From contig CBDFLP010000020.1 of assembly GCA_965249325.1 (NCBI GenBank), positions 321,428 through 385,427 of the forward strand: 64,000 bases of DNA. Direction: 5' to 3'. Source of the stretch: Dehalococcoidia bacterium (GTDB taxonomy: Bacteria; Chloroflexota; Dehalococcoidia; Lucifugimonadales; Australimonadaceae). The notes under the pieces are model-generated. The model saw only the letters and a list, made by a program, of their open reading frames with translations. It did not search any database and was not told the origin of the DNA. Positions within the stretch are counted from its first letter, which is position 1. Every line of letters starts with the position of its first letter. The position numbers were made by a program, and so were the translations under genes. Shown piece after piece: positions 5,126-49,820 of this stretch.

Positions 5126-7642
5126 TTAGTCGGGCGGGGGCGACGGCGGCTCGCCGGGACCCTCGCGCCGGTCGCGGTCGCGTTCCTCCCCGGACGCGAT
5201 GTCGACCGGGGGCCCAGGCTCCTTGGGCTCGCGGGAGCGCCGAGCGGGCTCACGGAGGCGTTCATCCATCTGCGCTAGCGTCGCCATGACCAGGCTGTTG
5301 ATGCTTCCTTCCGGGTAATGCCCATCCTCGTCCTGCTCACCAGCAGGCGCGCCCATGAGCAGCTCGACGCCCTGCTCCACTGTCTCCACCGCGTACACGT
5401 TGAACAGTCCCTCCCGGACGGCGTCGACCACCTCGTCGTTCAACACGAGGTTGCGGACGTTCGACGCGGGGATGAGCACTCCCTGCCGTCCCGTCAGCCC
5501 CCGCGCCTTGCAGACCTCGAAGAATCCCTCGATCTTTCGCGTCGCGCCCCCGATGGCTTGCACCTGGCCCTGCTGGTCGATGGAGCCCGTGACCGCGAGG
5601 CCTTGGTCTATCGGGACGTTCGCCAGGCTGGAGAGCAACGCGTACAGCTCCGTGCTCGACGCGCTGTCCCCATCGACCTCCTCGTAGGTCTGCTCGAACG
5701 CGATGCTCGCCCGCATGGGCAGCGTCGCGTCCAGGCCGTACTTCCCCATGAGGTAGCCCATGAGTATCTGGAATCCCTTGCTGTGGATGCGCCCGCTCAT
5801 CTGGCTCGCTTGCTCCACGTTCGCCAGCTCTCCCCGCCCAAGCGCGACCCGCGCCGTAAGGCGGGACGGCCGGCCAAAGGAGTAGTCGCCCATGTCGATA
5901 ACGGCGAGCCCGTTGATCTGCCCGACCACTCGCCCGTCCACCTCAACGCGTATCGTTCCTTCGTCGTATAGGTCTTGCAGGCGTTCTTCGATGCGGTTGG
6001 AGCGGCTCCTCGCCTCGTCCACCGCCGCCTGCACGTGCTCGCGCGTCACCATGTCGCTCCCGACCTGCCTCGCCCAGAAGCTCGCCTCGATGACCAGGTC
6101 CGCGACATCCGCGAACCGTGCGCTCAGGCGCTCCTGGTCCTCCACGAAGCGAGCCGATTGCTCGATGACCCTAGCGACCCCCGATGCGTCGAAGGGCAGC
6201 AGGCCGTCCTCTTGGATGCGGTTCACCACAAAGGACGCGTAACGGCGGATGTTCTCGGCGTTCAGCTCTATCTCGGTGGAGAAGTCCGCCTTCACCTTGA
6301 ACAGTTTCGGAAAGTCCTCGTCGTATAGCAGCAGCGTTCGGGCGAGGTGCGGATTGCCGATGAGGACGACCTTTACGTCCAACGGCACCGGCTCAGGCTC
6401 GATGCTGGTGGTCGGGACGAGCGCTATCTGCTCACCGAGGCTCTCGATCCGCGCTTCGCCGCTCTGCAGAGCCTGCTTCAGGCTCTGCCAGAGGCCGGGG
6501 ACGGCGAGTAGGTCCTTGGCGTGGAAGACGAGGAAGCCTCCGTTCGCCCGGTGCAGCGAGCCGGGGTGGACTTCCGTGAAGTCGGTCGTCATCGCGCCGT
6601 TGCGGAACGCGTGGTCGGCCCTGCCGAATACGTTGTAGTGCGTGGGGCTCTGCTCGAAGACCACTGGGGCCCCGTTCGTGCGCGAGTGATCGACGAAGAC
6701 GTTCACGCGATAGCAAAGCAGCGTCGCTTCGGCCTGAGCGAACTCCGGGGCAGGCGCCCCGTCGCGCGCGCCAAAGAAAATATGGATGCCGCTCAGCATG
6801 TCCTCGCGCACTTCGCGCAGGTACTGGACGGCCTCGCCATGCTCTCCGTAGTACTCGCGCAGCTCCGCGAACAGCGGTCGGAGCGCGAACTCCGCCACCT
6901 CCCGGTTGACCGCGCTCCGCACCCGGTTCGCCTCCCGCTCGGTCTGGCGCATCTCTCCTATCTGCTGGGTGATGAGGCCCTGAAGCTCTTCCTGGCGTTT
7001 CTGCGCCTCCTGCGCCTCCTCGCTGGAGAGGGCGTTGAGCTCCTCGCGAGACATCGGCTCGCCCGTGGGGCCGAGGGGGACCGCCACGATTCCGGCGTCG
7101 CTCATCCTGAGACTCATTCCCCGGCGGCTCGCCTCCTCGACCATGCGTTCGTTGATGGCCCGCTGCCTCTGCTGCACTTCCGCGAGGGCCTCCTCGACCC
7201 GACGCTCGTACTCCTTGCTCTCGAACGCCCTGGGCACCCGGACACGCGCCTCCGACACCAGCTCGTCCATGTCGCTCGCGAGCTGACGGCCCATGCCGGC
7301 AGGGAGGCTTATCCCGCGCGGCCGCTTGGGGTCTGCGAAGCTGTGGACGTACACCCAATCGTTCGGCACGGGCCGTCTTGCCGCCGTCTGCCGCAGCAGC
7401 GCCCGCAGCGTCGTCGACCGCCCCGTACCCGGCGCGCCGGACACGAAGATGTTGAACCCCCGCTGCTCAACTCCCAGCCCAAATTCCAGGGCCCGCAACG
7501 CCCGGTCCTGCCCGATCGTCCCCTCCAACGGCGGAACCTCGCGCGTCGTGTCGAAACCGAGCTCCGACTCGGACAGCCGCACCGTCAACTTCTCGACGGG
7601 CGTCCTCAGCCGCGACTTGATATCCGATGGGGGTAAGGTCAT
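5126..7642 (-). CDS. LonC-like (COG1067-type) Lon protease with degenerate AAA+ motifs and an inserted coiled-coil helical domain
   Basis: The C-terminal S16 domain carries a Ser-Lys dyad context (VDGDSASSTELYALLS, GGATRKIEGF). Walker A reads GAPGTGRST (Arg in place of Lys). The Walker B position reads GGFLVFHAKD. Confidence 0.8.
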   Translation of the reverse strand: MTLPPSDIKSRLRTPVEKLTVRLSESELGFDTTREVPPLEGTIGQDRALRALEFGLGVEQRGFNIFVSGAPGTGRSTTLRALLRQTAARRPVPNDWVYVHSFADPKRPRGISLPAGMGRQLASDMDELVSEARVRVPRAFESKEYERRVEEALAEVQQRQRAINERMVEEASRRGMSLRMSDAGIVAVPLGPTGEPMSREELNALSSEEAQEAQKRQEELQGLITQQIGEMRQTEREANRVRSAVNREVAEFALRPLFAELREYYGEHGEAVQYLREVREDMLSGIHIFFGARDGAPAPEFAQAEATLLCYRVNVFVDHSRTNGAPVVFEQSPTHYNVFGRADHAFRNGAMTTDFTEVHPGSLHRANGGFLVFHAKDLLAVPGLWQSLKQALQSGEARIESLGEQIALVPTTSIEPEPVPLDVKVVLIGNPHLARTLLLYDEDFPKLFKVKADFSTEIELNAENIRRYASFVVNRIQEDGLLPFDASGVARVIEQSARFVEDQERLSARFADVADLVIEASFWARQVGSDMVTREHVQAAVDEARSRSNRIEERLQDLYDEGTIRVEVDGRVVGQINGLAVIDMGDYSFGRPSRLTARVALGRGELANVEQASQMSGRIHSKGFQILMGYLMGKYGLDATLPMRASIAFEQTYEEVDGDSASSTELYALLSSLANVPIDQGLAVTGSIDQQGQVQAIGGATRKIEGFFEVCKARGLTGRQGVLIPASNVRNLVLNDEVVDAVREGLFNVYAVETVEQGVELLMGAPAGEQDEDGHYPEGSINSLVMATLAQMDERLREPARRSREPKEPGPPVDIASGEERDRDRREGPGEPPSPPPD

Positions 7643-40717: not shown

Positions 40718-41179
40718 TTACGCGGCTGGCGCGGGGTCCGGCGCGGGCGCCTCGTCAGCGACGTGCAGGCTGAGGCGCTTCGCCTTCTTGCTCTCGGCCT
40801 TGGGGAACCGGACCGTCACGACGCCGTGCTCGTACGAGGACGCCGCCTTGTCCGCGTCCACGCTCTCCGGTAGGCGGACAGAGCGGCGGAAGGAGCCGGT
40901 GCGGCGCTCGCGTAGCAGGTAGCCGTCCTCCTGACGCTCCCCCTCCGACGCCGTCTGCCCCTCGAGGGTGAGTACGCCGTCCTCGATGGTGATGCCGATG
41001 TCGGAGGGCGGGACGCCGGGGAGTGCGCCCTTGATGACGAGGTCCTCGCCGTCCCTCTCAACGTCGAGCGGGATCGACCAGCCGCCGGCGTAGGAGTAGT
41101 GATAGGGGACGCCGAAGCGTCGGTGCATGTGCTCAAACCTGAGCAGGTCTCGGAATGGGGTCCAACGTTCGATGGCCAT
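40718..41179 (-). CDS. Small heat-shock protein (Hsp20/alpha-crystallin)
   Basis: PLDVERDGEDLVIKGALPGV..GVLTLEGQ..GSFRRSVRLPESVD..YEHGVVTVRFPK. Confidence 0.9.
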   Translation of the reverse strand: MAIERWTPFRDLLRFEHMHRRFGVPYHYSYAGGWSIPLDVERDGEDLVIKGALPGVPPSDIGITIEDGVLTLEGQTASEGERQEDGYLLRERRTGSFRRSVRLPESVDADKAASSYEHGVVTVRFPKAESKKAKRLSLHVADEAPAPDPAPAA

Positions 41180-41338: not shown

Positions 41339-42115
41339 CTACCCGCGCCGGTCTGTGTTGAGGTAGTAACGCCGCGAGACTTCCAGAAAGCCGAGCTTGG
41401 CGGCTATGCGCAAGGACGCCGCGTTGTCCTCGCCGGCGCTCCATACGGGAATCCGGCCTCGCTCTCGGATCAGGCGCGCTACTATGTTCCCACAGGCGGA
41501 GGCGAACCCCTTGCCGCGCCAGGACTCATCGGTGGCCACCCCAATATCGCCGTGCTTTGCCGTCAAGGCATTGGTGTGCGCCAAGGCCACGAGCCCGCCC
41601 TCCACTACAGCGCCGGCCGCCGCGCCATTCGTCAGCAGGTCCTCGAACGTTACGAAGCTCATGCCCTGCGCGCTTCTCCGGTATGCAGCCAGTAGGTCCA
41701 CGTCTTCCAACTCCAGCTGGCGGACCTCGGGAACAGCGAATTCGGCAACATCGCCGGTCAGCGTGTGGTATACGTCGCCGTAGCGCCGAACGTGGACGCC
41801 TGCGTCTTGCTCCATGAGCGCGGCCAGTGGACCGGCCAAGTCGGCGGATGCGTTCGGCGACATACCCGGCTGTCGCCAGTCATTGAGCGGACGCAGCAGC
41901 TCCCATATGGCCGATGGGTCCGTCCCGAAGCACCAAGGCTCCCGCCGCAGTAAATGCGATTGGACGACCATACCGTCGAGTCGCCCCGAAGCGTCGGCTG
42001 CATATGCGTCCGCGAGACCCCGACGCAGGAGATGGTTCGCAATAGCGGTTTCCGGCGTATCCCCTAGAGCGTCGGCAAGGAGGTCGCGTTGCTCTTGTGT
42101 CTGTAACAGGCCCAT
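41339..42115 (-). CDS. GNAT-family N-acetyltransferase
   Basis: The C-terminal region ..VATDESWRGKGFASACGNIVARL..NAASLRIAAKLGF.. matches the acetyl-CoA-binding motif A style. Confidence 0.7.
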   Translation of the reverse strand: MGLLQTQEQRDLLADALGDTPETAIANHLLRRGLADAYAADASGRLDGMVVQSHLLRREPWCFGTDPSAIWELLRPLNDWRQPGMSPNASADLAGPLAALMEQDAGVHVRRYGDVYHTLTGDVAEFAVPEVRQLELEDVDLLAAYRRSAQGMSFVTFEDLLTNGAAAGAVVEGGLVALAHTNALTAKHGDIGVATDESWRGKGFASACGNIVARLIRERGRIPVWSAGEDNAASLRIAAKLGFLEVSRRYYLNTDRRG

Positions 42116-42256
42116 TGCCCTCCTCAGTCGGCCGGCGTTCGCGGCGTAGCCGAGCGCCGAGGGGAATCATGACGACTCGGCGGGGCGAGCATACTACCGA
42201 GCACCCGTGGGCGCGCGCCCGCGTTGGTGCGGGTCTCCCGGTGTTAGAATCGGCTT

Positions 42257-42874
42257 ATGGCGCACTCGCCGCTGCTCATCGCCACCCATAACCCCCACAA
42301 GGTCGCCGAGTTCCGCAGGCTCCTCGGCGGCGTTGGGCTCGACTTGGTTACGCCCGCCGACCTCAGCCTCGATCTCGAGGTCGAGGAGACCGGCCAGACC
42401 TTTGAGGAGAACGCTCGCATCAAGGCCCGCGCCTTTTGCGCCGCGAGCGGCCTCTCCTCCCTTGCCGACGACTCCGGCATCGAGGTTGACGCCCTGGACG
42501 GACGTCCCGGCGTGCGTTCAGCGCGCTACGGCGGCGACGGCCTCGACGACGCCGGCCGCGTGAGCCTCCTGCTCGCCGAGCTTGGCGGCGTGCCCCAAGA
42601 CCAACGCTCGTGCCGCTACCGCGTCGTCCTCGTCCTTGCCTGGCCCGACGGGCACGAGGAGACGGCCGAGGGCGCGTGCGAGGGCAGGGTGGCCTTTGAG
42701 CCCGTCGGCGACAATGGCTTCGGCTACGACCCCGTCTTCCACGTCCCGGCCTATGGCAAGACCGTTGCGCAGCTCGGCGCCGACGAGAAGGACGCCATTA
42801 GCCATCGCGGTCAGGCCGCCCGCCGAATGGCCGCCCTCCTGACCGGCGCCGCTCTCGCCGAGGCGGCATCGTGA
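42257..42874 (+). CDS. rdgB: Non-canonical purine NTP pyrophosphatase (RdgB/HAM1)
   Basis: LLIATHNPHKVAEFRRLL..ADDSGIEVDALDGRPGVRSARY..GFGYDPVF..ISHRG. Confidence 0.9.
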   Translation: MAHSPLLIATHNPHKVAEFRRLLGGVGLDLVTPADLSLDLEVEETGQTFEENARIKARAFCAASGLSSLADDSGIEVDALDGRPGVRSARYGGDGLDDAGRVSLLLAELGGVPQDQRSCRYRVVLVLAWPDGHEETAEGACEGRVAFEPVGDNGFGYDPVFHVPAYGKTVAQLGADEKDAISHRGQAARRMAALLTGAALAEAAS

Positions 42875-43899
42875 CCGCGCAGCTGACCGACACGCTCGGT
42901 AGGCCGGTTCACGACCTCCGCATTTCCGTGACCGACCGCTGCAACTTCCGTTGCACGTACTGCATGCCCGCCGAGATATTCGGCGAGCGCTACCACTTCC
43001 TCCCCCGCGAGGCCATCCTCTCCTACGAGGAGATTGCCCGTCTCACCGGCTTATTCGTCGGTCTTGGCGTGACCAAGGTCCGCATCACCGGCGGCGAGCC
43101 CCTCGTCCGGCGGGACCTGGAAGAGCTCGTCGCGATGCTCGCCGAGATGGACGGCATCGACGACTTGACCCTCACCACCAACGGCTACCTGCTGGCCGAG
43201 CAGGCCCAAGCCCTGCGCGACGCAGGCCTACGACGCGTCACCGTGAGCCTCGACACCCTCGACCCCGAGATATTCGGCATGATGAACGGTAGAGGTTACT
43301 CGCCCGATGCCGTCTTGGAAGGCATCGCTACGGCCGAGCGGGTGGGACTCGGCCCCATCAAGCTCAACGCCGTCGTCGAGCGGGGAGTCAACGACCACAC
43401 CGTCATGGACATGGTCCGCCACTTCAAAGGCTCAGGCCAAATCCTCCGCTTCATCGAGTACATGGACGTCGGCAACATCAACGGCTGGCGCCGCGACCAA
43501 GTGGTCCCGTCCGCCGAGCTCGTCGAACAGGTCAACGCCGTATACCCCATCGAGCCCCTCGCGCCCAATTACCGGGGCGAGGTCGCCGAACGATGGCGTT
43601 TCATCGACGGCGACGGCGAGATCGGCTTCATCTCATCCGTCACCCAGCCTTTCTGCGGAGACTGCACCCGCGTGCGGCTCTCCCCCGAAGGCCAGGTGCT
43701 GACGTGCCTCTTCGCCTCGTCCGGCGTCGACCTCCTCACGCCCCTCCGCGACGGCGAAACGGACGCTCAGATCCAAGACCGCATCGCCAATATCTGGCGC
43801 GCCCGCACAGACCGCTACTCCGAGCTCCGCGCCGCCCTGCGTCGCCCCGGACACGAGACCCCCGCCCGCAAAATCGAGATGTACCAGATAGGCGGATGA
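42871..43899 (+). CDS. moaA: GTP 3',8-cyclase (radical SAM)
   Basis: [19 protein letters not shown]-terminal [18 protein letters not shown] overlap with rdgB. Confidence 0.95.
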
Positions 43900-44825
43900 C
43901 TCCTTCCTTCGACATCTACACCGACGGCTCCTGCCTCGCAAACCCCGGCCCCGGCGGTTGGGCTGCCATCATCGAGCATGACGGCGAGACCGACCGGCTA
44001 TCGGGCGGCGAGCGCTCCACCACGAACAATCGCATGGAGGTCACCGCCGCCATCAAGGGGCTGGAGGCGGTCCCCGTTGGCGCAACCGCCGTGGTCCACT
44101 CCGACAGCGAGTACCTCGTCAAGACGATGACCAAGGGCTGGAAGCGCAACGCGAACCGCGATCTATGGGAGCAGTTGGACCGTCTCGCGACGAGGCGTAA
44201 CGTCGACTTCCGATGGGTGCGCGGGCACGCGGGGCATCCGCAGAACGAGGAGGCTGACCGCCTCGCCGTTCGCGCGATGCAGAGCGCCGCGGGCAGGACG
44301 CTTCCGCTCGAAACGGCAGCGGAAGGCGCGCCGTCCCCCGCCGTCCCAAGCCCGGGCCTCACTCACATCGACGCCCAAGGTGCCGCTCGCATGGTCGACG
44401 TGGGCGCCAAGCCGGACTCCGACCGTTTCGCCGCCGCTGCCGGAACGGTCACTATGCGTCCTGAAACTCTTGCCCTCATCCTCCAGGGCAAGATGGAGAA
44501 GGGCGATGTCTTCACCGTCGCTCGCATCGCCGGCGTCAATGCGGCTAAGCACACCTGGGAGCTCATTCCCCTCGCCCACCAGATTCCCCTCTCCCACGTC
44601 GAAGTCGACTTCGAGACCGACCCTCCGCAGGGGAGGGTGACTGTCTCCTCGCGCGCCCGCACGACCGCCAAGACCGGCGTGGAGATGGAAGCCCTAACCG
44701 CAGTTGCCGTCGCCGCCCTGACCATCTACGACATGTGCAAGGCCGTAGACCGCTCCATGACCATCGGCGACGTTCGCCTCATGGAGAAGACGGGCGGCGT
44801 CCACGGCGATTACAAAGCCCTGTGA
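43896..44825 (+). CDS. moaC: Fusion protein: RNase HI domain (N-terminal, about 145 aa) plus cyclic pyranopterin monophosphate synthase MoaC (C-terminal, about 155 aa)
   Basis: RNase H part: [42 protein letters not shown]. MoaC part: [60 protein letters not shown] single uninterrupted frame. ATGA overlap with moaA. Confidence 0.85.
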
Positions 44826-45229
44826 GCCTGCCCGCGCAGTGCGTCGCAGGCGCGCTCGTGAGCAGTGGCAAAGTCCTGCTCGTCCGGAGATCCCCGTTTC
44901 GCGCATACTACCCAAGCGTATGGGACCTCTTCGGAGGGCACGTCGAGAGCGGGGAGTCATTGGAGGATGCGCTCCGCAGGGAGGCTCGTGAAGAGCTCGA
45001 GGTGGAGCTGGATTCCTGTCGGCTGCTTGGGACAGTCCATGATCCAGTCGAACACGCCGATATCCACCTCTTCGTCGTGACGGCATGGCGCGGCGAGCCC
45101 GTAAACGCGGCGCCCCAAGAGCACACGGAGATTGGCTGGTTTTCAGCCGCTGAGCTGCCTCTTGGTCCGGCAGGCTTGGACGCCTATCGCGACCTCGTCG
45201 TGGAGGCGGTGACGCGCCCCGAGGCATAG
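44822..45229 (+). CDS. NUDIX hydrolase
   Basis: Nudix box [24 protein letters not shown]. The GTG start overlaps the moaC stop (GTGA). Confidence 0.8.
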
Positions 45230-45234
45230 ATTCT

Positions 45235-45666
45235 TTACCTCCCCAACCGCACCGCTCCGGCCACTGCGCGGAACGACTCCGACGATATCTCGAACAGCCA
45301 AGAGTGGCGCATTTCCGACAACTTGCGGCGATCGTCCTTCGTGAACGCGAGACGCAAGAGCTCCAACGGCGCCGGCTCCCGGAAGGGCAGGTAGTCGTAC
45401 TCGTAGGTCCCTCGCGCGTGGTCGACGCTTGTCGCGATGCCGATTCCCGGCGCGGTCTTGGCGCGCCCCGGATAGCTGGACGTGCAGTAGATGAGCACCA
45501 TGTCTCCCGTCTTCAGCTCCCGCGGCATGGCGCGGTTGCCGTACATCCCGCCCTCGACCGTCACGTGGTCGCCGACCGTAGGGTCGGCGTAGACCGCGAA
45601 GTAACACCTCGGCGATGCGGCGCTCATGGCATGAGACCCTAGCACCGCCCACTGCTTGCCCGCCAC
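45235..45666 (-). CDS. Hypothetical protein, possibly a PUA/EVE-like fold
   Basis: 143-aa ORF with good coding statistics by eye. The fold guess is weak. Confidence 0.4.
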   Translation of the reverse strand: MAGKQWAVLGSHAMSAASPRCYFAVYADPTVGDHVTVEGGMYGNRAMPRELKTGDMVLIYCTSSYPGRAKTAPGIGIATSVDHARGTYEYDYLPFREPAPLELLRLAFTKDDRRKLSEMRHSWLFEISSESFRAVAGAVRLGR

Positions 45667-45894
45667 GAGCCTTGGGAGGCCCTCCCCGTCACCGACCTCA
45701 CCGGGAGTGCGAACGCCCTAGCTGGAGCAGCTGTGTAGGGCAAGCGCAGCCTAGGCGAACGGAGAATCCCGAGTGTGATATGATGCAGTCCCCAACGGAT
45801 TTTGAGCTGCCTTTCTGTTTCCTCGGTCCGACACGCCAGGCTTCTGCTGGTGCCTCCAAGTCAAACGGGCAACCTGACTCCTAAGGAGCACTAG

Positions 45895-46176
45895 ATGAAG
45901 ATTTACGTCGGCAACCTCAGTTTCAACACGAGTGACAACGACCTGCGAGACGCCTTCGCCCCCTACGGCGAGGTCGCCAGCGCACAGGTCATTACGGACC
46001 GCGAGACCATGCGCTCGCGTGGGTTCGGTTTCGTCGAGATGGCCGCTGACAGTGCGGCGCAGCAGGCGATTCGCAGCCTCAACGGCTCGGACCTCCAGGG
46101 CCGCGCCCTCAACGTCAACGAAGCCAAGCCTCGGGAAGACCGCGGCTCGCGGAGCGGCGGCGGTTCCTGGAGGTAG
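45895..46176 (+). CDS. RRM-type RNA-binding protein
   Basis: RNP2 KIYVGNLSF, RNP1 RGFGFVEM, Gly/Arg-rich tail. AGGAG lies 8 nt upstream. Confidence 0.9.
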   Translation: MKIYVGNLSFNTSDNDLRDAFAPYGEVASAQVITDRETMRSRGFGFVEMAADSAAQQAIRSLNGSDLQGRALNVNEAKPREDRGSRSGGGSWR

Positions 46177-47597: not shown

Positions 47598-49820
47598 ATG
47601 ACCGGCCCCGCTGAGGCGCTCCTCCAAGGACTCAACCCCCCGCAGCGTGAAGCCGTCGAGCATGTCGACGGCCCGCTGCTGATCGTCGCAGGCCCCGGCT
47701 CCGGCAAGACTCGCGTCATCACCCACCGCATCGCCTACCTCAACCAGCGCGTCGGCATCGGCCCCAGCCGCATCGCCGCCGTCACCTTCACCAACCGCGC
47801 CGCACGGGATATGCGCTCCCGTCTGGAACGCCTCATGGGCGAGCGCGCCCGATACCTCTTCGCCGGCACCTTCCACGCCCTTTGCGCCATGATTCTGCGG
47901 CGCGACGGCGAGGCCATCGGCATCCCCAAAGAGTTCGTCATCATGGACGACGATGATCAGATGGGCCTCATCAAGCAGGCGATGGAGCTGGCCGAGGTCA
48001 ACCCCAAACGTTTCCCTCCACGCGCCGTTCTATCCGCCATCAGTTCCGCCAAGTCCCAGCTCCTCGGCCCGGAGGGCTTTGCCGGCAGCGCCCAGGGCTA
48101 CTACGACGAGGCCGTACATCGCGTCTTCGTCCAATACCAGGGCCTCCTAGCCCGCAGCCGCGGCGTCGATTTCGACGACCTCCTGAGCCGGACCGTGGAG
48201 CTCCTCCGCCAGTCCCCCGAAACGAAGGCCAAGTACCAGGAACGGTTCGTCCACATCATGGTCGACGAGTTTCAGGACACCAACGTCGCCCAGTACCAGA
48301 TCGCCCGCGAGCTTGCGGGCAAGCATCGCAACCTCACCGTTGTGGGCGACCCCGACCAGTCCATCTACTCCTGGCGCAACGCCGACATTCGCAACATCCT
48401 TTCCTTCCAGAAAGACTACCCCGAATCGAAGGTCGTCCATCTCTCTCAGAACTACCGCTCGACCGGCACGATCCTCGACGCCGCCCAGCACGTCATACGC
48501 CCCAACAGCCAGCGTATCGAGCAGCGCCTGTTCACCGAGAACGAGCCCGGAGCCCCGGTCTACGTCGCCGAGGCCTACAACGAGGAGGAGGAAGCCCAGG
48601 GCGTCATCCGCGAGGTGCAGCGCCTCATGGAGGAGGAGAGTGTCACCCTGCGCGATTGCGTCGTGACCTACCGAGTCAACGCCCAGTCCCGCGCCTTGGA
48701 GGAGGCGTGCCTCCGCTACGGCGTCCCCTACAAGCTCATCGGCGGCGTCCGCTTCTACCAGCGGCGCGAGGTCAAGGACGTGGTCGCCTACCTGCGCCTG
48801 CTCCAGGATCCCTACGACGAGGTCAGCCTCACGCGCGTCATCAATGTGCCGGCGCGCGGCATCGGCAAGAAGACTGTCGACGACCTCACCGCGTGGGCGC
48901 GCACACTGGACATCCCCGCTTACAGCGCGCTCCAGCTGTTGACCGACGAGTCGGGCGAGCATCCGTCGCCCTTCGACGCGCGTCAGAAGCGCCAGCTTGC
49001 AGGCTTCCTCTCCCTGATCAACGCCCTGCGCGAACGCGCCGCTGACCTTGAGCTGCCCGAACTCATCGACGAGGTGATGGAGCGCTCCGGCTACCGGCGC
49101 TCGCTCATCGAGTCCGGTGACTCCGACGCTGAGGACCGCCTCGACAACATCCGCGAGTTCCGGGGAATGACCGCTGACCTCGCCGGTGCGCCCGCCGCCG
49201 AGAACCTGCCGGCCTTCATCGAAAGCGTGACCCTCGTCTCCGACCAAGACGCCATCCAAGAGGACGAGCAGCAATACCTCACTCTCATCACTCTCCACCA
49301 GATCAAGGGCCTCGAATACCCCGTCGTCTTCATCACCGGCATGGAGGAAGGCATCCTGCCCCACATGCGCTCTCTCGACGACCCCGACCAGCTCGAGGAG
49401 GAGCGCCGCATCGCCTACGTCGGCATGACCCGCGCTCGCAAGCGCCTCTACCTGCTGCGGTCGCTGCGCAGGATGATGTACGGCAGGACAGGCCCGGGGT
49501 ACGCGTCGCGCTTTCTCATGGACATCCCCTACAACCTCATCGAGGTCCCGGCCCGCAAGCAGCGCGACGGGGCCGCCTCTGACGCCATCCGTCATTCCCG
49601 CGAAGGCGGAAACCTCGCCACTGCATCCGGCGTGAGCGCCCCCGCCCAGCCGCCGCCGTTCAAGGCAGGCGACAAGGTCGCTCATGCCAGCTTCGGCAAG
49701 GGCGTCGTCGTCAACTGCGCCCCGCGCCCTGACGACTACGAGGTAACTGTCGCATTCGTGGGGGCCGGCATCCGCCGGTTGCTCCACAGCTACGGCAAGC
49801 TCGATAAGGTCGTAAGCTAG
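47598..49820 (+). CDS. pcrA: ATP-dependent DNA helicase PcrA/UvrD (SF1)
   Basis: GPGSGKTRVITHR, MVDEFQDTN, VGDPDQSIYSWRNA, LSQNYRS, TLHQIKGLEYPVVF, RIAYVGMTRARKRL. Confidence 0.95.
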   Translation: MTGPAEALLQGLNPPQREAVEHVDGPLLIVAGPGSGKTRVITHRIAYLNQRVGIGPSRIAAVTFTNRAARDMRSRLERLMGERARYLFAGTFHALCAMILRRDGEAIGIPKEFVIMDDDDQMGLIKQAMELAEVNPKRFPPRAVLSAISSAKSQLLGPEGFAGSAQGYYDEAVHRVFVQYQGLLARSRGVDFDDLLSRTVELLRQSPETKAKYQERFVHIMVDEFQDTNVAQYQIARELAGKHRNLTVVGDPDQSIYSWRNADIRNILSFQKDYPESKVVHLSQNYRSTGTILDAAQHVIRPNSQRIEQRLFTENEPGAPVYVAEAYNEEEEAQGVIREVQRLMEEESVTLRDCVVTYRVNAQSRALEEACLRYGVPYKLIGGVRFYQRREVKDVVAYLRLLQDPYDEVSLTRVINVPARGIGKKTVDDLTAWARTLDIPAYSALQLLTDESGEHPSPFDARQKRQLAGFLSLINALRERAADLELPELIDEVMERSGYRRSLIESGDSDAEDRLDNIREFRGMTADLAGAPAAENLPAFIESVTLVSDQDAIQEDEQQYLTLITLHQIKGLEYPVVFITGMEEGILPHMRSLDDPDQLEEERRIAYVGMTRARKRLYLLRSLRRMMYGRTGPGYASRFLMDIPYNLIEVPARKQRDGAASDAIRHSREGGNLATASGVSAPAQPPPFKAGDKVAHASFGKGVVVNCAPRPDDYEVTVAFVGAGIRRLLHSYGKLDKVVS
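49589..49616 (-). repeat. REP-type hairpin module embedded in frame in the pcrA linker
   Basis: CCGTCATTCCCGCGAAGGCGGAAACCTC is the rc-type of GAGGTTCCCGCCTxCGCGGGAATGACGG. Translated as IRHSREGGNL. Confidence 0.75.

Follow-up and report, generated by a model that had tools for sequence, protein, structure and literature searches.

In a 64,000-nucleotide stretch of DNA from a Dehalococcoidia bacterium (GenBank assembly GCA_965249325.1, contig CBDFLP010000020.1, positions 321,428 to 385,427 of the forward strand; hereafter, the window), we found a single open reading frame (ORF) that joins rnhA, encoding a type-1 RNase H (RNase HI), to moaC, encoding the cyclic pyranopterin monophosphate (cPMP) synthase of molybdenum cofactor (Moco) biosynthesis. 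Far from being rare, the RNase HI::MoaC protein is how MoaC usually occurs in an entire branch of Dehalococcoidia/SAR202-type Chloroflexota. It probably goes back to a lineage-restricted merger of adjacent, cotranslated operon genes, which would have yielded a bifunctional protein made of two independent enzymes.

A first-pass annotation, made by a model from the sequence alone, had reported one uninterrupted frame of 309 amino acids (aa) with both domains, and our analysis confirmed it: Pfam RNase_H and MoaC both match the translation of this one ORF (Table 1). The GC content at third codon positions (GC3) amounts to 0.86 for the region encoding RNase H and to 0.81 for that encoding MoaC, with one frame shared by both. 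The fusion gene follows rdgB and moaA and precedes a gene for a NUDIX hydrolase. RdgB scored 163.9 bits with the NCBIfam model TIGR00042 (RdgB/HAM1; cut-off, 145), and the NUDIX gene product reached no NCBIfam equivalog cut-off. At the junction of rdgB and moaA, the two genes overlap by 4 nt (GTGA), and moaA starts with GTG. The ATG of the fusion sits within the final codons of moaA (GGCGGATGACT), where ...GGC GGA TGA is also read as G ATG A (ATGA), and at the other end the TGA of the fusion shares nucleotides with a GTG at 44822, from which the downstream NUDIX ORF can be read in frame (CCCTGTGAGCC). Translational coupling at both ends of the fusion had been proposed earlier; the ATGA overlap with moaA bears this out at the 5′-end, but at the 3′-end the GTG at 44822 is a plausible, not a proven, NUDIX start, with an alternative in-frame GTG upstream at 44735. 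Since the four genes overlap and both genes flanking them lie on the opposite strand, rdgB, moaA, rnhA::moaC, and nudix seem to form one transcription unit that looks translationally coupled. A scan of positions 41900 to 45700 for sigma-70-like consensus sites and intrinsic terminators found no internal promoter or terminator for a separate expression of MoaC. An Rfam scan of the whole window at gathering thresholds returned no family, neither a Moco riboswitch before the moa operon nor a tRNA.

Judged by its sequence, the N-terminal domain is a natural short-form RNase HI. Pfam RNase_H (PF00075) aligns with aa 6 to 128 (E = 1.1e-32; 113.6 bits; gathering score, 25.8), and the NCBIfam equivalog for ribonuclease HI (NF001236) was missed, with 139.1 bits against a cut-off of 160, a shortfall that coincides with a 13-aa deletion in the basic protrusion. 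The segment equivalent to residues 78 to 106 of Escherichia coli RNase HI has 16 aa, compared with 29 aa in E. coli. Thus, of the earlier description of a complete RNase HI with its DEDD residues, the residues stand, but the domain is the short form. D10, E48, D70, H111, and D121 of the window correspond to D10, E48, D70, H124, and D134 of the E. coli enzyme, whose reference sequence was verified against PDB wild-type entries. Among 144 full-length family members, on which all conservation counts are based, D10 is present in 143, E48 and D70 in all, the His124 equivalent in 142, and the D134 equivalent in 140. The roles of S71 and of the T43/N45 pocket, which binds a phosphate of the DNA strand, are known from complexes of RNase H with hybrids; T43 and S71 are both invariant (144/144), and the N45 position holds Asn in 128 members and Gln in the remaining 16. 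The RNase H half is ~42% identical to E. coli RNase HI, and in Foldseek its model matched the E. coli structure with a template modeling (TM) score (target) of 0.74 to 0.81 and a root mean square deviation (rmsd) of ~2 Å. Apart from this general pattern, Asp takes the place of the second His in the GHAGH motif of the split-form RNase HIs of two relatives (L087 and L090), and the His124 equivalent is replaced by N, P, A, or D in four divergent fused representatives (P0138, P0146, P0155, and P0159). These substitutions hint that RNase H catalysis may be altered in some members.

The MoaC domain is complete, as had been claimed. Pfam MoaC (PF01967) covers aa 166 to 301 (E = 1.7e-56; 190.4 bits against a gathering score of 27), and the two NCBIfam MoaC models were passed, TIGR00581 with 206.8 bits (cut-off, 141.5) and PRK09364 with 220.1 bits (cut-off, 162), their alignments beginning at aa 154 to 155. 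The homology to MoaC therefore begins at L155 (LTHID), which equals residue 4 of E. coli MoaC, and not at M166, and the linker measures ~22 to 25 aa (aa 133 to 154) instead of the ~35 aa given in the first-pass annotation. K202, H228, E263, E265, D279, and K282 of the window are equivalent to K51, H77, E112, E114, D128, and K131 of E. coli MoaC; these six catalytic or substrate-binding residues are invariant (144/144). The MoaC model matched chain C of the E. coli MoaC structure (4pyd_C) with a TM score (target) of 0.91 and an rmsd of 2.2 Å, at ~60% identity over the aligned region. From their residues, both domains of the fusion look catalytically intact. Characterized MoaC proteins are hexamers with their active sites at the dimer interfaces, and the crystal entries 4pyd and 2ide contain several chains; the MoaC part of the fusion would presumably form the usual hexamer as well.

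The two domains are predicted to have no fixed packing or interface. An AlphaFold2 monomer model, built from a 61-sequence family alignment, has two confident domains, in which the predicted local distance difference test (pLDDT) is mostly >90; it falls below 50 at aa 136 to 156 and is also low at aa 157 to 176, and the predicted TM score (pTM) of the whole is 0.49. In Foldseek, the halves matched separately, and no solved chain spanned both domains. Across the family, the linker is rich in Ala, Pro, Gly, and Ser and varies in length from 0 to 103 aa (median, 30). Its mean pairwise identity is 25%, whereas the RNase H and MoaC domains reach 66% and 72%, respectively; the value for RNase H, together with the conservation of its catalytic residues, T43, and S71, argues for purifying selection on this domain. 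A peptide of the form SLSP(R/W)ER(A/V)(G/R)VRV or SPLSLQGERAGVRV recurs in the linkers of eight proteins (P0005, P0007, P0013, P0015, P0021, P0025, P0026, and P0028), sometimes twice in one linker. It resembles either a repeat that expanded in frame or a repetitive DNA element that sat in the former intergenic spacer and is now translated. We also looked for hairpins or repeat elements from which the linker DNA could have originated; in the window, L081, and L007, the only such features were palindromes, short and weak, and none was convincing.

The shortened protrusion raises the alternative that the fusion was selected for the sake of RNase H function, with a MoaC hexamer displaying six short RNase HI domains whose avidity offsets the truncation. 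Such a scaffold would fit the loss of 13 aa from the protrusion, the established hexamers of MoaC with their multichain crystal entries, and a flexible linker of a tether-like length. However, the short protrusion is also common in stand-alone RNase HI proteins of 129 to 134 aa, including those of the split relatives L085 and L087 and one that is unlinked to moaC and adjoins pdxA (P0367), and the full-length protrusion is retained in some fused members (P0139, P0142, and P0151). Fusion and truncation are thus uncorrelated, and we regard this explanation as unlikely.

The first-pass annotation had proposed a query for the co-occurrence of the two domain families and suspected the architecture to be new. 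A search of 5.8 billion proteins returned at least 120 clusters (90% identity), all of those listed containing both PF00075 and PF01967 and being 49 to 77% identical to the query, with fusions right through to the last match listed. When 50%-identity representatives were scanned exhaustively with HMMER, ~30 had RNase H followed by MoaC, about one-third of them being fragments. Every fusion with an organism label, labels being available for a minority of the sequences, came from a Dehalococcoidia, SAR202, or Chloroflexota metagenome-assembled genome, including GTDB representative genomes. The fusion in L001 (CBDHDB010000001.1) is 97% identical to that of the window and evidently belongs to the same species. 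Full-text literature searches turned up no description of an RNase H-MoaC architecture, only unrelated co-occurrences of the words. Hence, the suspicion holds as far as published descriptions are concerned, but the architecture is not rare and is present in public databases, where the named entries call it "cyclic pyranopterin monophosphate synthase MoaC" only. In ~70 moaC loci without a fusion, nearly all from other phyla, there was no RNase H gene and no rdgB gene within 6 kb. A separate origin in another phylum was considered for fusions with long protrusions (P0139, P0142, P0144, and P0151), but at the P0142 locus the rdgB-moaA context recurs, which leaves no evidence of a separate origin outside the lineage.

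As another architecture, the 50%-identity representatives include proteins with two or three RNase HI domains in tandem (P0149, 509 aa; P0135, 464 aa; P0154, P0164, P0165, P0167, P0211, P0217, P0263, and P0282), one of them being RNase H-RNase H-MoaC. Five of these (P0154, P0165, P0211, P0217, and P0263) had been candidates for the reverse order, MoaC followed by RNase H, but according to Pfam they are RNase H-RNase H tandems without MoaC.

The order rdgB-moaA-[rnhA::moaC] is found in most fused loci, including divergent ones (44 to 57% identical) whose flanks are unlike those of the window. Of the 14 related RNase HI::MoaC loci compared, 9 have rdgB directly 5′ of moaA (L083 being too short to show upstream genes), as do L087, L089, L090, L092, and L096; moaA lies directly 5′ of the fusion in the window and in L001 to L003, L005, L007, L056, L081, L084, L092, L095, and L096. 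The closest stand-alone short RNase HI genes (62 to 65% identical) are situated directly 5′ of a stand-alone moaC, mostly in the rdgB-moaA context. In L090, rdgB-moaA-rnhA is separated from moaC by a 25-bp gap; in L087/L088 (rdgB-moaA-x-x-rnhA), the gap is 85 bp, and in L087 other genes sit between moaA and rnhA. In L085 and L086, which have neither rdgB nor moaA within 5 kb upstream, a stand-alone moaC (5392 to 5976 in each; 194 aa) shares 8 nt with the stand-alone rnhA that precedes it, and the moaC product has a 40-aa Pro-rich, linker-like N-terminal extension; from these sequences, the pair looks like a fusion just before or just after the change of the boundary. In L089 (5001 to 5953), an RNase H ORF of 192 aa extends into the start of moaC but in a different frame, with MoaC called from a conserved internal Met. 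The frame break lies within the linker and may reflect a split of recent date or, alternatively, an erroneous indel in an assembly of 18× coverage. Finally, two Dehalococcoidia loci, L006 and L008, have rdgB-moaA-moaC without rnhA at that position.

All three states come together in one tight MoaC clade (100/100 bootstrap; 73 to 81% identity) that contains the fused P0134, the split L087 and L090, and the rnhA-less L006 and L008. Thus, close relatives have switched between these states repeatedly, and the fused state is optional and dispensable. The trees were neighbor-joining trees of domains of ~150 residues; bootstrapping was applied to this MoaC clade only, with P0156 and P0161, which are without an RNase H domain, excluded.

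The operon also gave rise to a second fusion: in the lineages nearest to the window, RdgB (Ham1) and MoaA are joined in a single ORF of 550 to 614 aa (~8 clusters), as in L081 (3990 to 5696; P0401), P0402 to P0407, and P0482 (455 aa, its N-terminus missing), with a variable, low-complexity linker rich in Pro, Ser, and Gly. The contigs with these rdgB::moaA genes also carry the nearest rnhA::moaC genes, so that one operon encodes two consecutive fusion proteins; the window, by contrast, has rdgB and moaA as separate genes. MoaA activity requires its free C-terminal Gly-Gly. MoaA of the window ends with ...MYQIGG, and the Gly-Gly is kept in 119 of 120 relatives. This need for a free Gly-Gly would explain that the fusions are N-terminal to MoaA and to MoaC, and never between moaA and the next gene.

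Taken together, the disordered and hypervariable linker, the split and absent states, and the rdgB::moaA fusions suggest that overlapping neighbors merge easily in this operon and point to no new coupled mechanism. The module rdgB-moaA-rnhA-moaC is conserved, apparently with translational coupling, in Dehalococcoidia/SAR202-type Chloroflexota, where loss of the boundary between rnhA and moaC would have left one ORF. In its product, the N-terminal short-form type-1 RNase H would cleave the RNA strand of RNA/DNA hybrids by the two-metal DEDD chemistry, as its residues suggest, and the C-terminal part, an ordinary MoaC, would turn the MoaA product 3′,8-cH2GTP into cPMP; the linker between them would be a flexible, disordered Ala/Pro-rich tether ("beads on a string"). 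We infer that both activities are exerted in vivo and that they are not coupled. The fusion would have persisted because it is tolerated, the N-terminus of MoaC being free and MoaA keeping its required Gly-Gly C-terminus, and any benefit would be confined to coexpression; the fusion would reflect drift or operon compaction.

Several points weigh against this explanation. The adjacency of rnhA and moaC, fused or split, persists down to ~50% MoaC identity, with flanks that differ between loci, and a fusion combined with a conserved neighborhood is the classic "Rosetta stone" signature of functional association. In addition, both enzymes of cPMP formation are paired with nucleotide or nucleic-acid "hygiene" enzymes (RdgB with MoaA, and RNase HI with MoaC), which could be more than coincidence. 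As part of a presumed MoaC hexamer, the RNase H would also become hexavalent, an effect of possible importance for an enzyme lacking most of the basic, substrate-binding protrusion.

A metabolic version of such an association would hold that the module and its two fusions tie the GTP-consuming first step of Moco synthesis to the hygiene of nucleotides and nucleic acids: ITP, XTP, or aberrant purine nucleoside triphosphates near MoaA might be removed by RdgB, and RNase HI might handle the effects of any misincorporation of such analogues. In its favor, the four-gene order is kept in divergent members with locus-specific flanks, two separate fusion events took place in one operon, and in the window and L001 a NUDIX gene is appended, probably with translational coupling. 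However, no chemistry is known between RNase HI and cPMP formation, rnhA can be missing from its position or separated from moaA by extra genes (L006 and L008, and L087, respectively), and the link of rdgB with moaA is confined to this lineage. The NUDIX gene is not conserved in the module either, a homologue 3′ of the fusion being found only in L001. We therefore consider the metabolic version to have a slim chance of being correct. The first-pass annotation had seen no obvious link between hybrid cleavage and cPMP synthesis but had noted that both MoaA and MoaC handle GTP-derived intermediates; this hint of a functional link is not borne out by the disordered, hypervariable linker, the split or rnhA-less relatives, and the fusion of rdgB with moaA. 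Overall, it is improbable that the first stage of Moco synthesis is really coupled to nucleotide or nucleic-acid sanitation, be it through protection of MoaA and clean-up of aberrant purines or through a MoaC hexamer serving as a hexavalent RNase H platform.

By far the weakest explanation, an ORF created by an indel or a decayed RNase H remnant acting as an N-terminal extension, can draw on L089, whose frame break indicates that indels in the GC-rich, low-complexity linker stretch do occur or are miscalled, but its artefact part is refuted by the uninterrupted architecture in all of the at least 120 clusters listed, from many independent assemblies, by the 97% identical fusion of L001, and by residue conservation, with GC3 likewise indicating one frame throughout, and a remnant would hardly keep its catalytic residues, T43, and S71 each in at least 140 of 144 members and Asn or Gln at N45. 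The merger of two operon neighbors into a protein with two independent activities thus remains the probable explanation.

Table 1. Genes and protein domains of the moa operon in the window
Feature	Position	Strand	Basis or description
rdgB (Ham1-family XTP/dITP diphosphatase), operon gene 1	42257..42874	+	Pfam Ham1p_like, E = 1.6e-60
moaA (GTP 3′,8-cyclase, radical SAM)	42871..43899	+	Pfam Radical_SAM and Mob_synth_C; CNFRCTYC motif
rnhA::moaC fusion, operon gene 3/4	43896..44825	+	309 aa plus TGA, uninterrupted ORF
RNase HI domain, aa 1-132	43896..44291	+	Pfam RNase_H, 113.6 bits
Linker, aa 133-154	44292..44357	+	Ala/Pro/Ser/Gly-rich, predicted disordered
MoaC domain, aa 155-309 (cyclic pyranopterin monophosphate synthase)	44358..44822	+	TIGR00581 and PRK09364 above cut-offs
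NUDIX hydrolase, last operon gene	44822..45229	+	Pfam NUDIX, E = 3.6e-22

The broader synteny around the moa module is kept in the nearer relatives (L001, L081, L082, L084, and L089). Upstream, a divergent HSP20 gene (40718 to 41179, minus strand) is shared by the window with L001, L081, and L089, and a 258-aa GNAT-like gene (41339 to 42115, minus strand) is inserted in the window alone. A few kilobases downstream, a gene for a UvrD/PcrA-type helicase (47598 to 49820, plus strand) is also present in L001, L081, L082, and L084. Just past the operon, there is a 93-aa RRM-type protein (45895 to 46176, plus strand), which scored 121.7 bits with an NCBIfam "RNA-binding regulator" model (cut-off, 100). 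A 143-aa ORF (45235 to 45666, minus strand) is convergent with the end of the operon; it has no NCBIfam match, and no homologue surfaced in the other related loci, although no search was dedicated to it.

Provided that the fusion is what it seems, its practical consequences are limited. Thousands of Chloroflexota proteins labeled "MoaC" also carry what may be the RNase HI of the organism, and genome-based RNase H inventories of the phylum will miss it. The presence of fused, split, and absent states in close relatives offers a neat system for studying how operon neighbors with overlapping starts and stops merge and separate. The finding would gain importance only if the pairings of RdgB with MoaA and of RNase HI with MoaC reflected a true link between Moco and nucleotide hygiene, which the present evidence disfavors. 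Both parts are textbook enzymes, for each of which other fusion partners are already known, so that the novelty lies in the pairing and not in the mechanism or the kind of fusion; what we have is a correction of annotation and an example of fused operon neighbors, without a surprising mechanism.

Compared with E. coli RNase HI and MoaC, the fusion has the same folds and all of the catalytic residues, but the two are joined in one chain and the protrusion is 13 residues shorter. With respect to other MoaC fusions, it resembles MoaC/MoaB, MoaC/MOSC, MoaC/MobA, and MOCS1A-B in that an intact, complete MoaC is joined to another polypeptide. In eukaryotic MOCS1A-B, the MoaA domain is N-terminal to MoaC, and the partner in our fusion is likewise on the N-terminal side, a position that MoaC tolerates. 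However, the partners in the known MoaC fusions are enzymes of the Moco pathway, whereas here the partner is a nucleic-acid enzyme. The models of these fusions matched the MoaC half only and remained below their cut-offs (NF002947, MoaC/MoaB, 188.6 of 285 bits; NF011069, MoaC/MOSC, 184.7 of 457 bits; NF011070, MoaC/MobA, 123.9 of 606 bits).

The actinobacterial RNase HI/CobC proteins (Rv2228c of Mycobacterium tuberculosis, MSMEG_4305/RnhC of Mycobacterium smegmatis, and SCO2299 of Streptomyces coelicolor) are clade restricted and have a highly variable linker; their domains differ in evolutionary rate and can be separated functionally in vivo, and the authors ascribed the fixation of the fusion to drift (PMC7466739). 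Like them, the protein of the window consists of an N-terminal type-1 RNase H, a variable linker, and a C-terminal enzyme of cofactor biosynthesis, and it is found in a single bacterial lineage. The partner here is MoaC of the Moco pathway and not a histidine-phosphatase/CobC of the cobalamin pathway, and the gene is from Chloroflexota, not actinobacterial, and embedded in a moa operon. In keeping with these differences, the model for bifunctional RNase H/acid phosphatase (NF005567) gave 44.8 bits against a cut-off of 326 and covered aa 6 to 157, that is, the RNase H half and the linker. By analogy, the precedent of fixation by drift would support a merger of operon neighbors without functional coupling. 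As a second, independent natural fusion of RNase HI with a cofactor enzyme, RNase HI::MoaC helps to ask whether such fusions are neutral.

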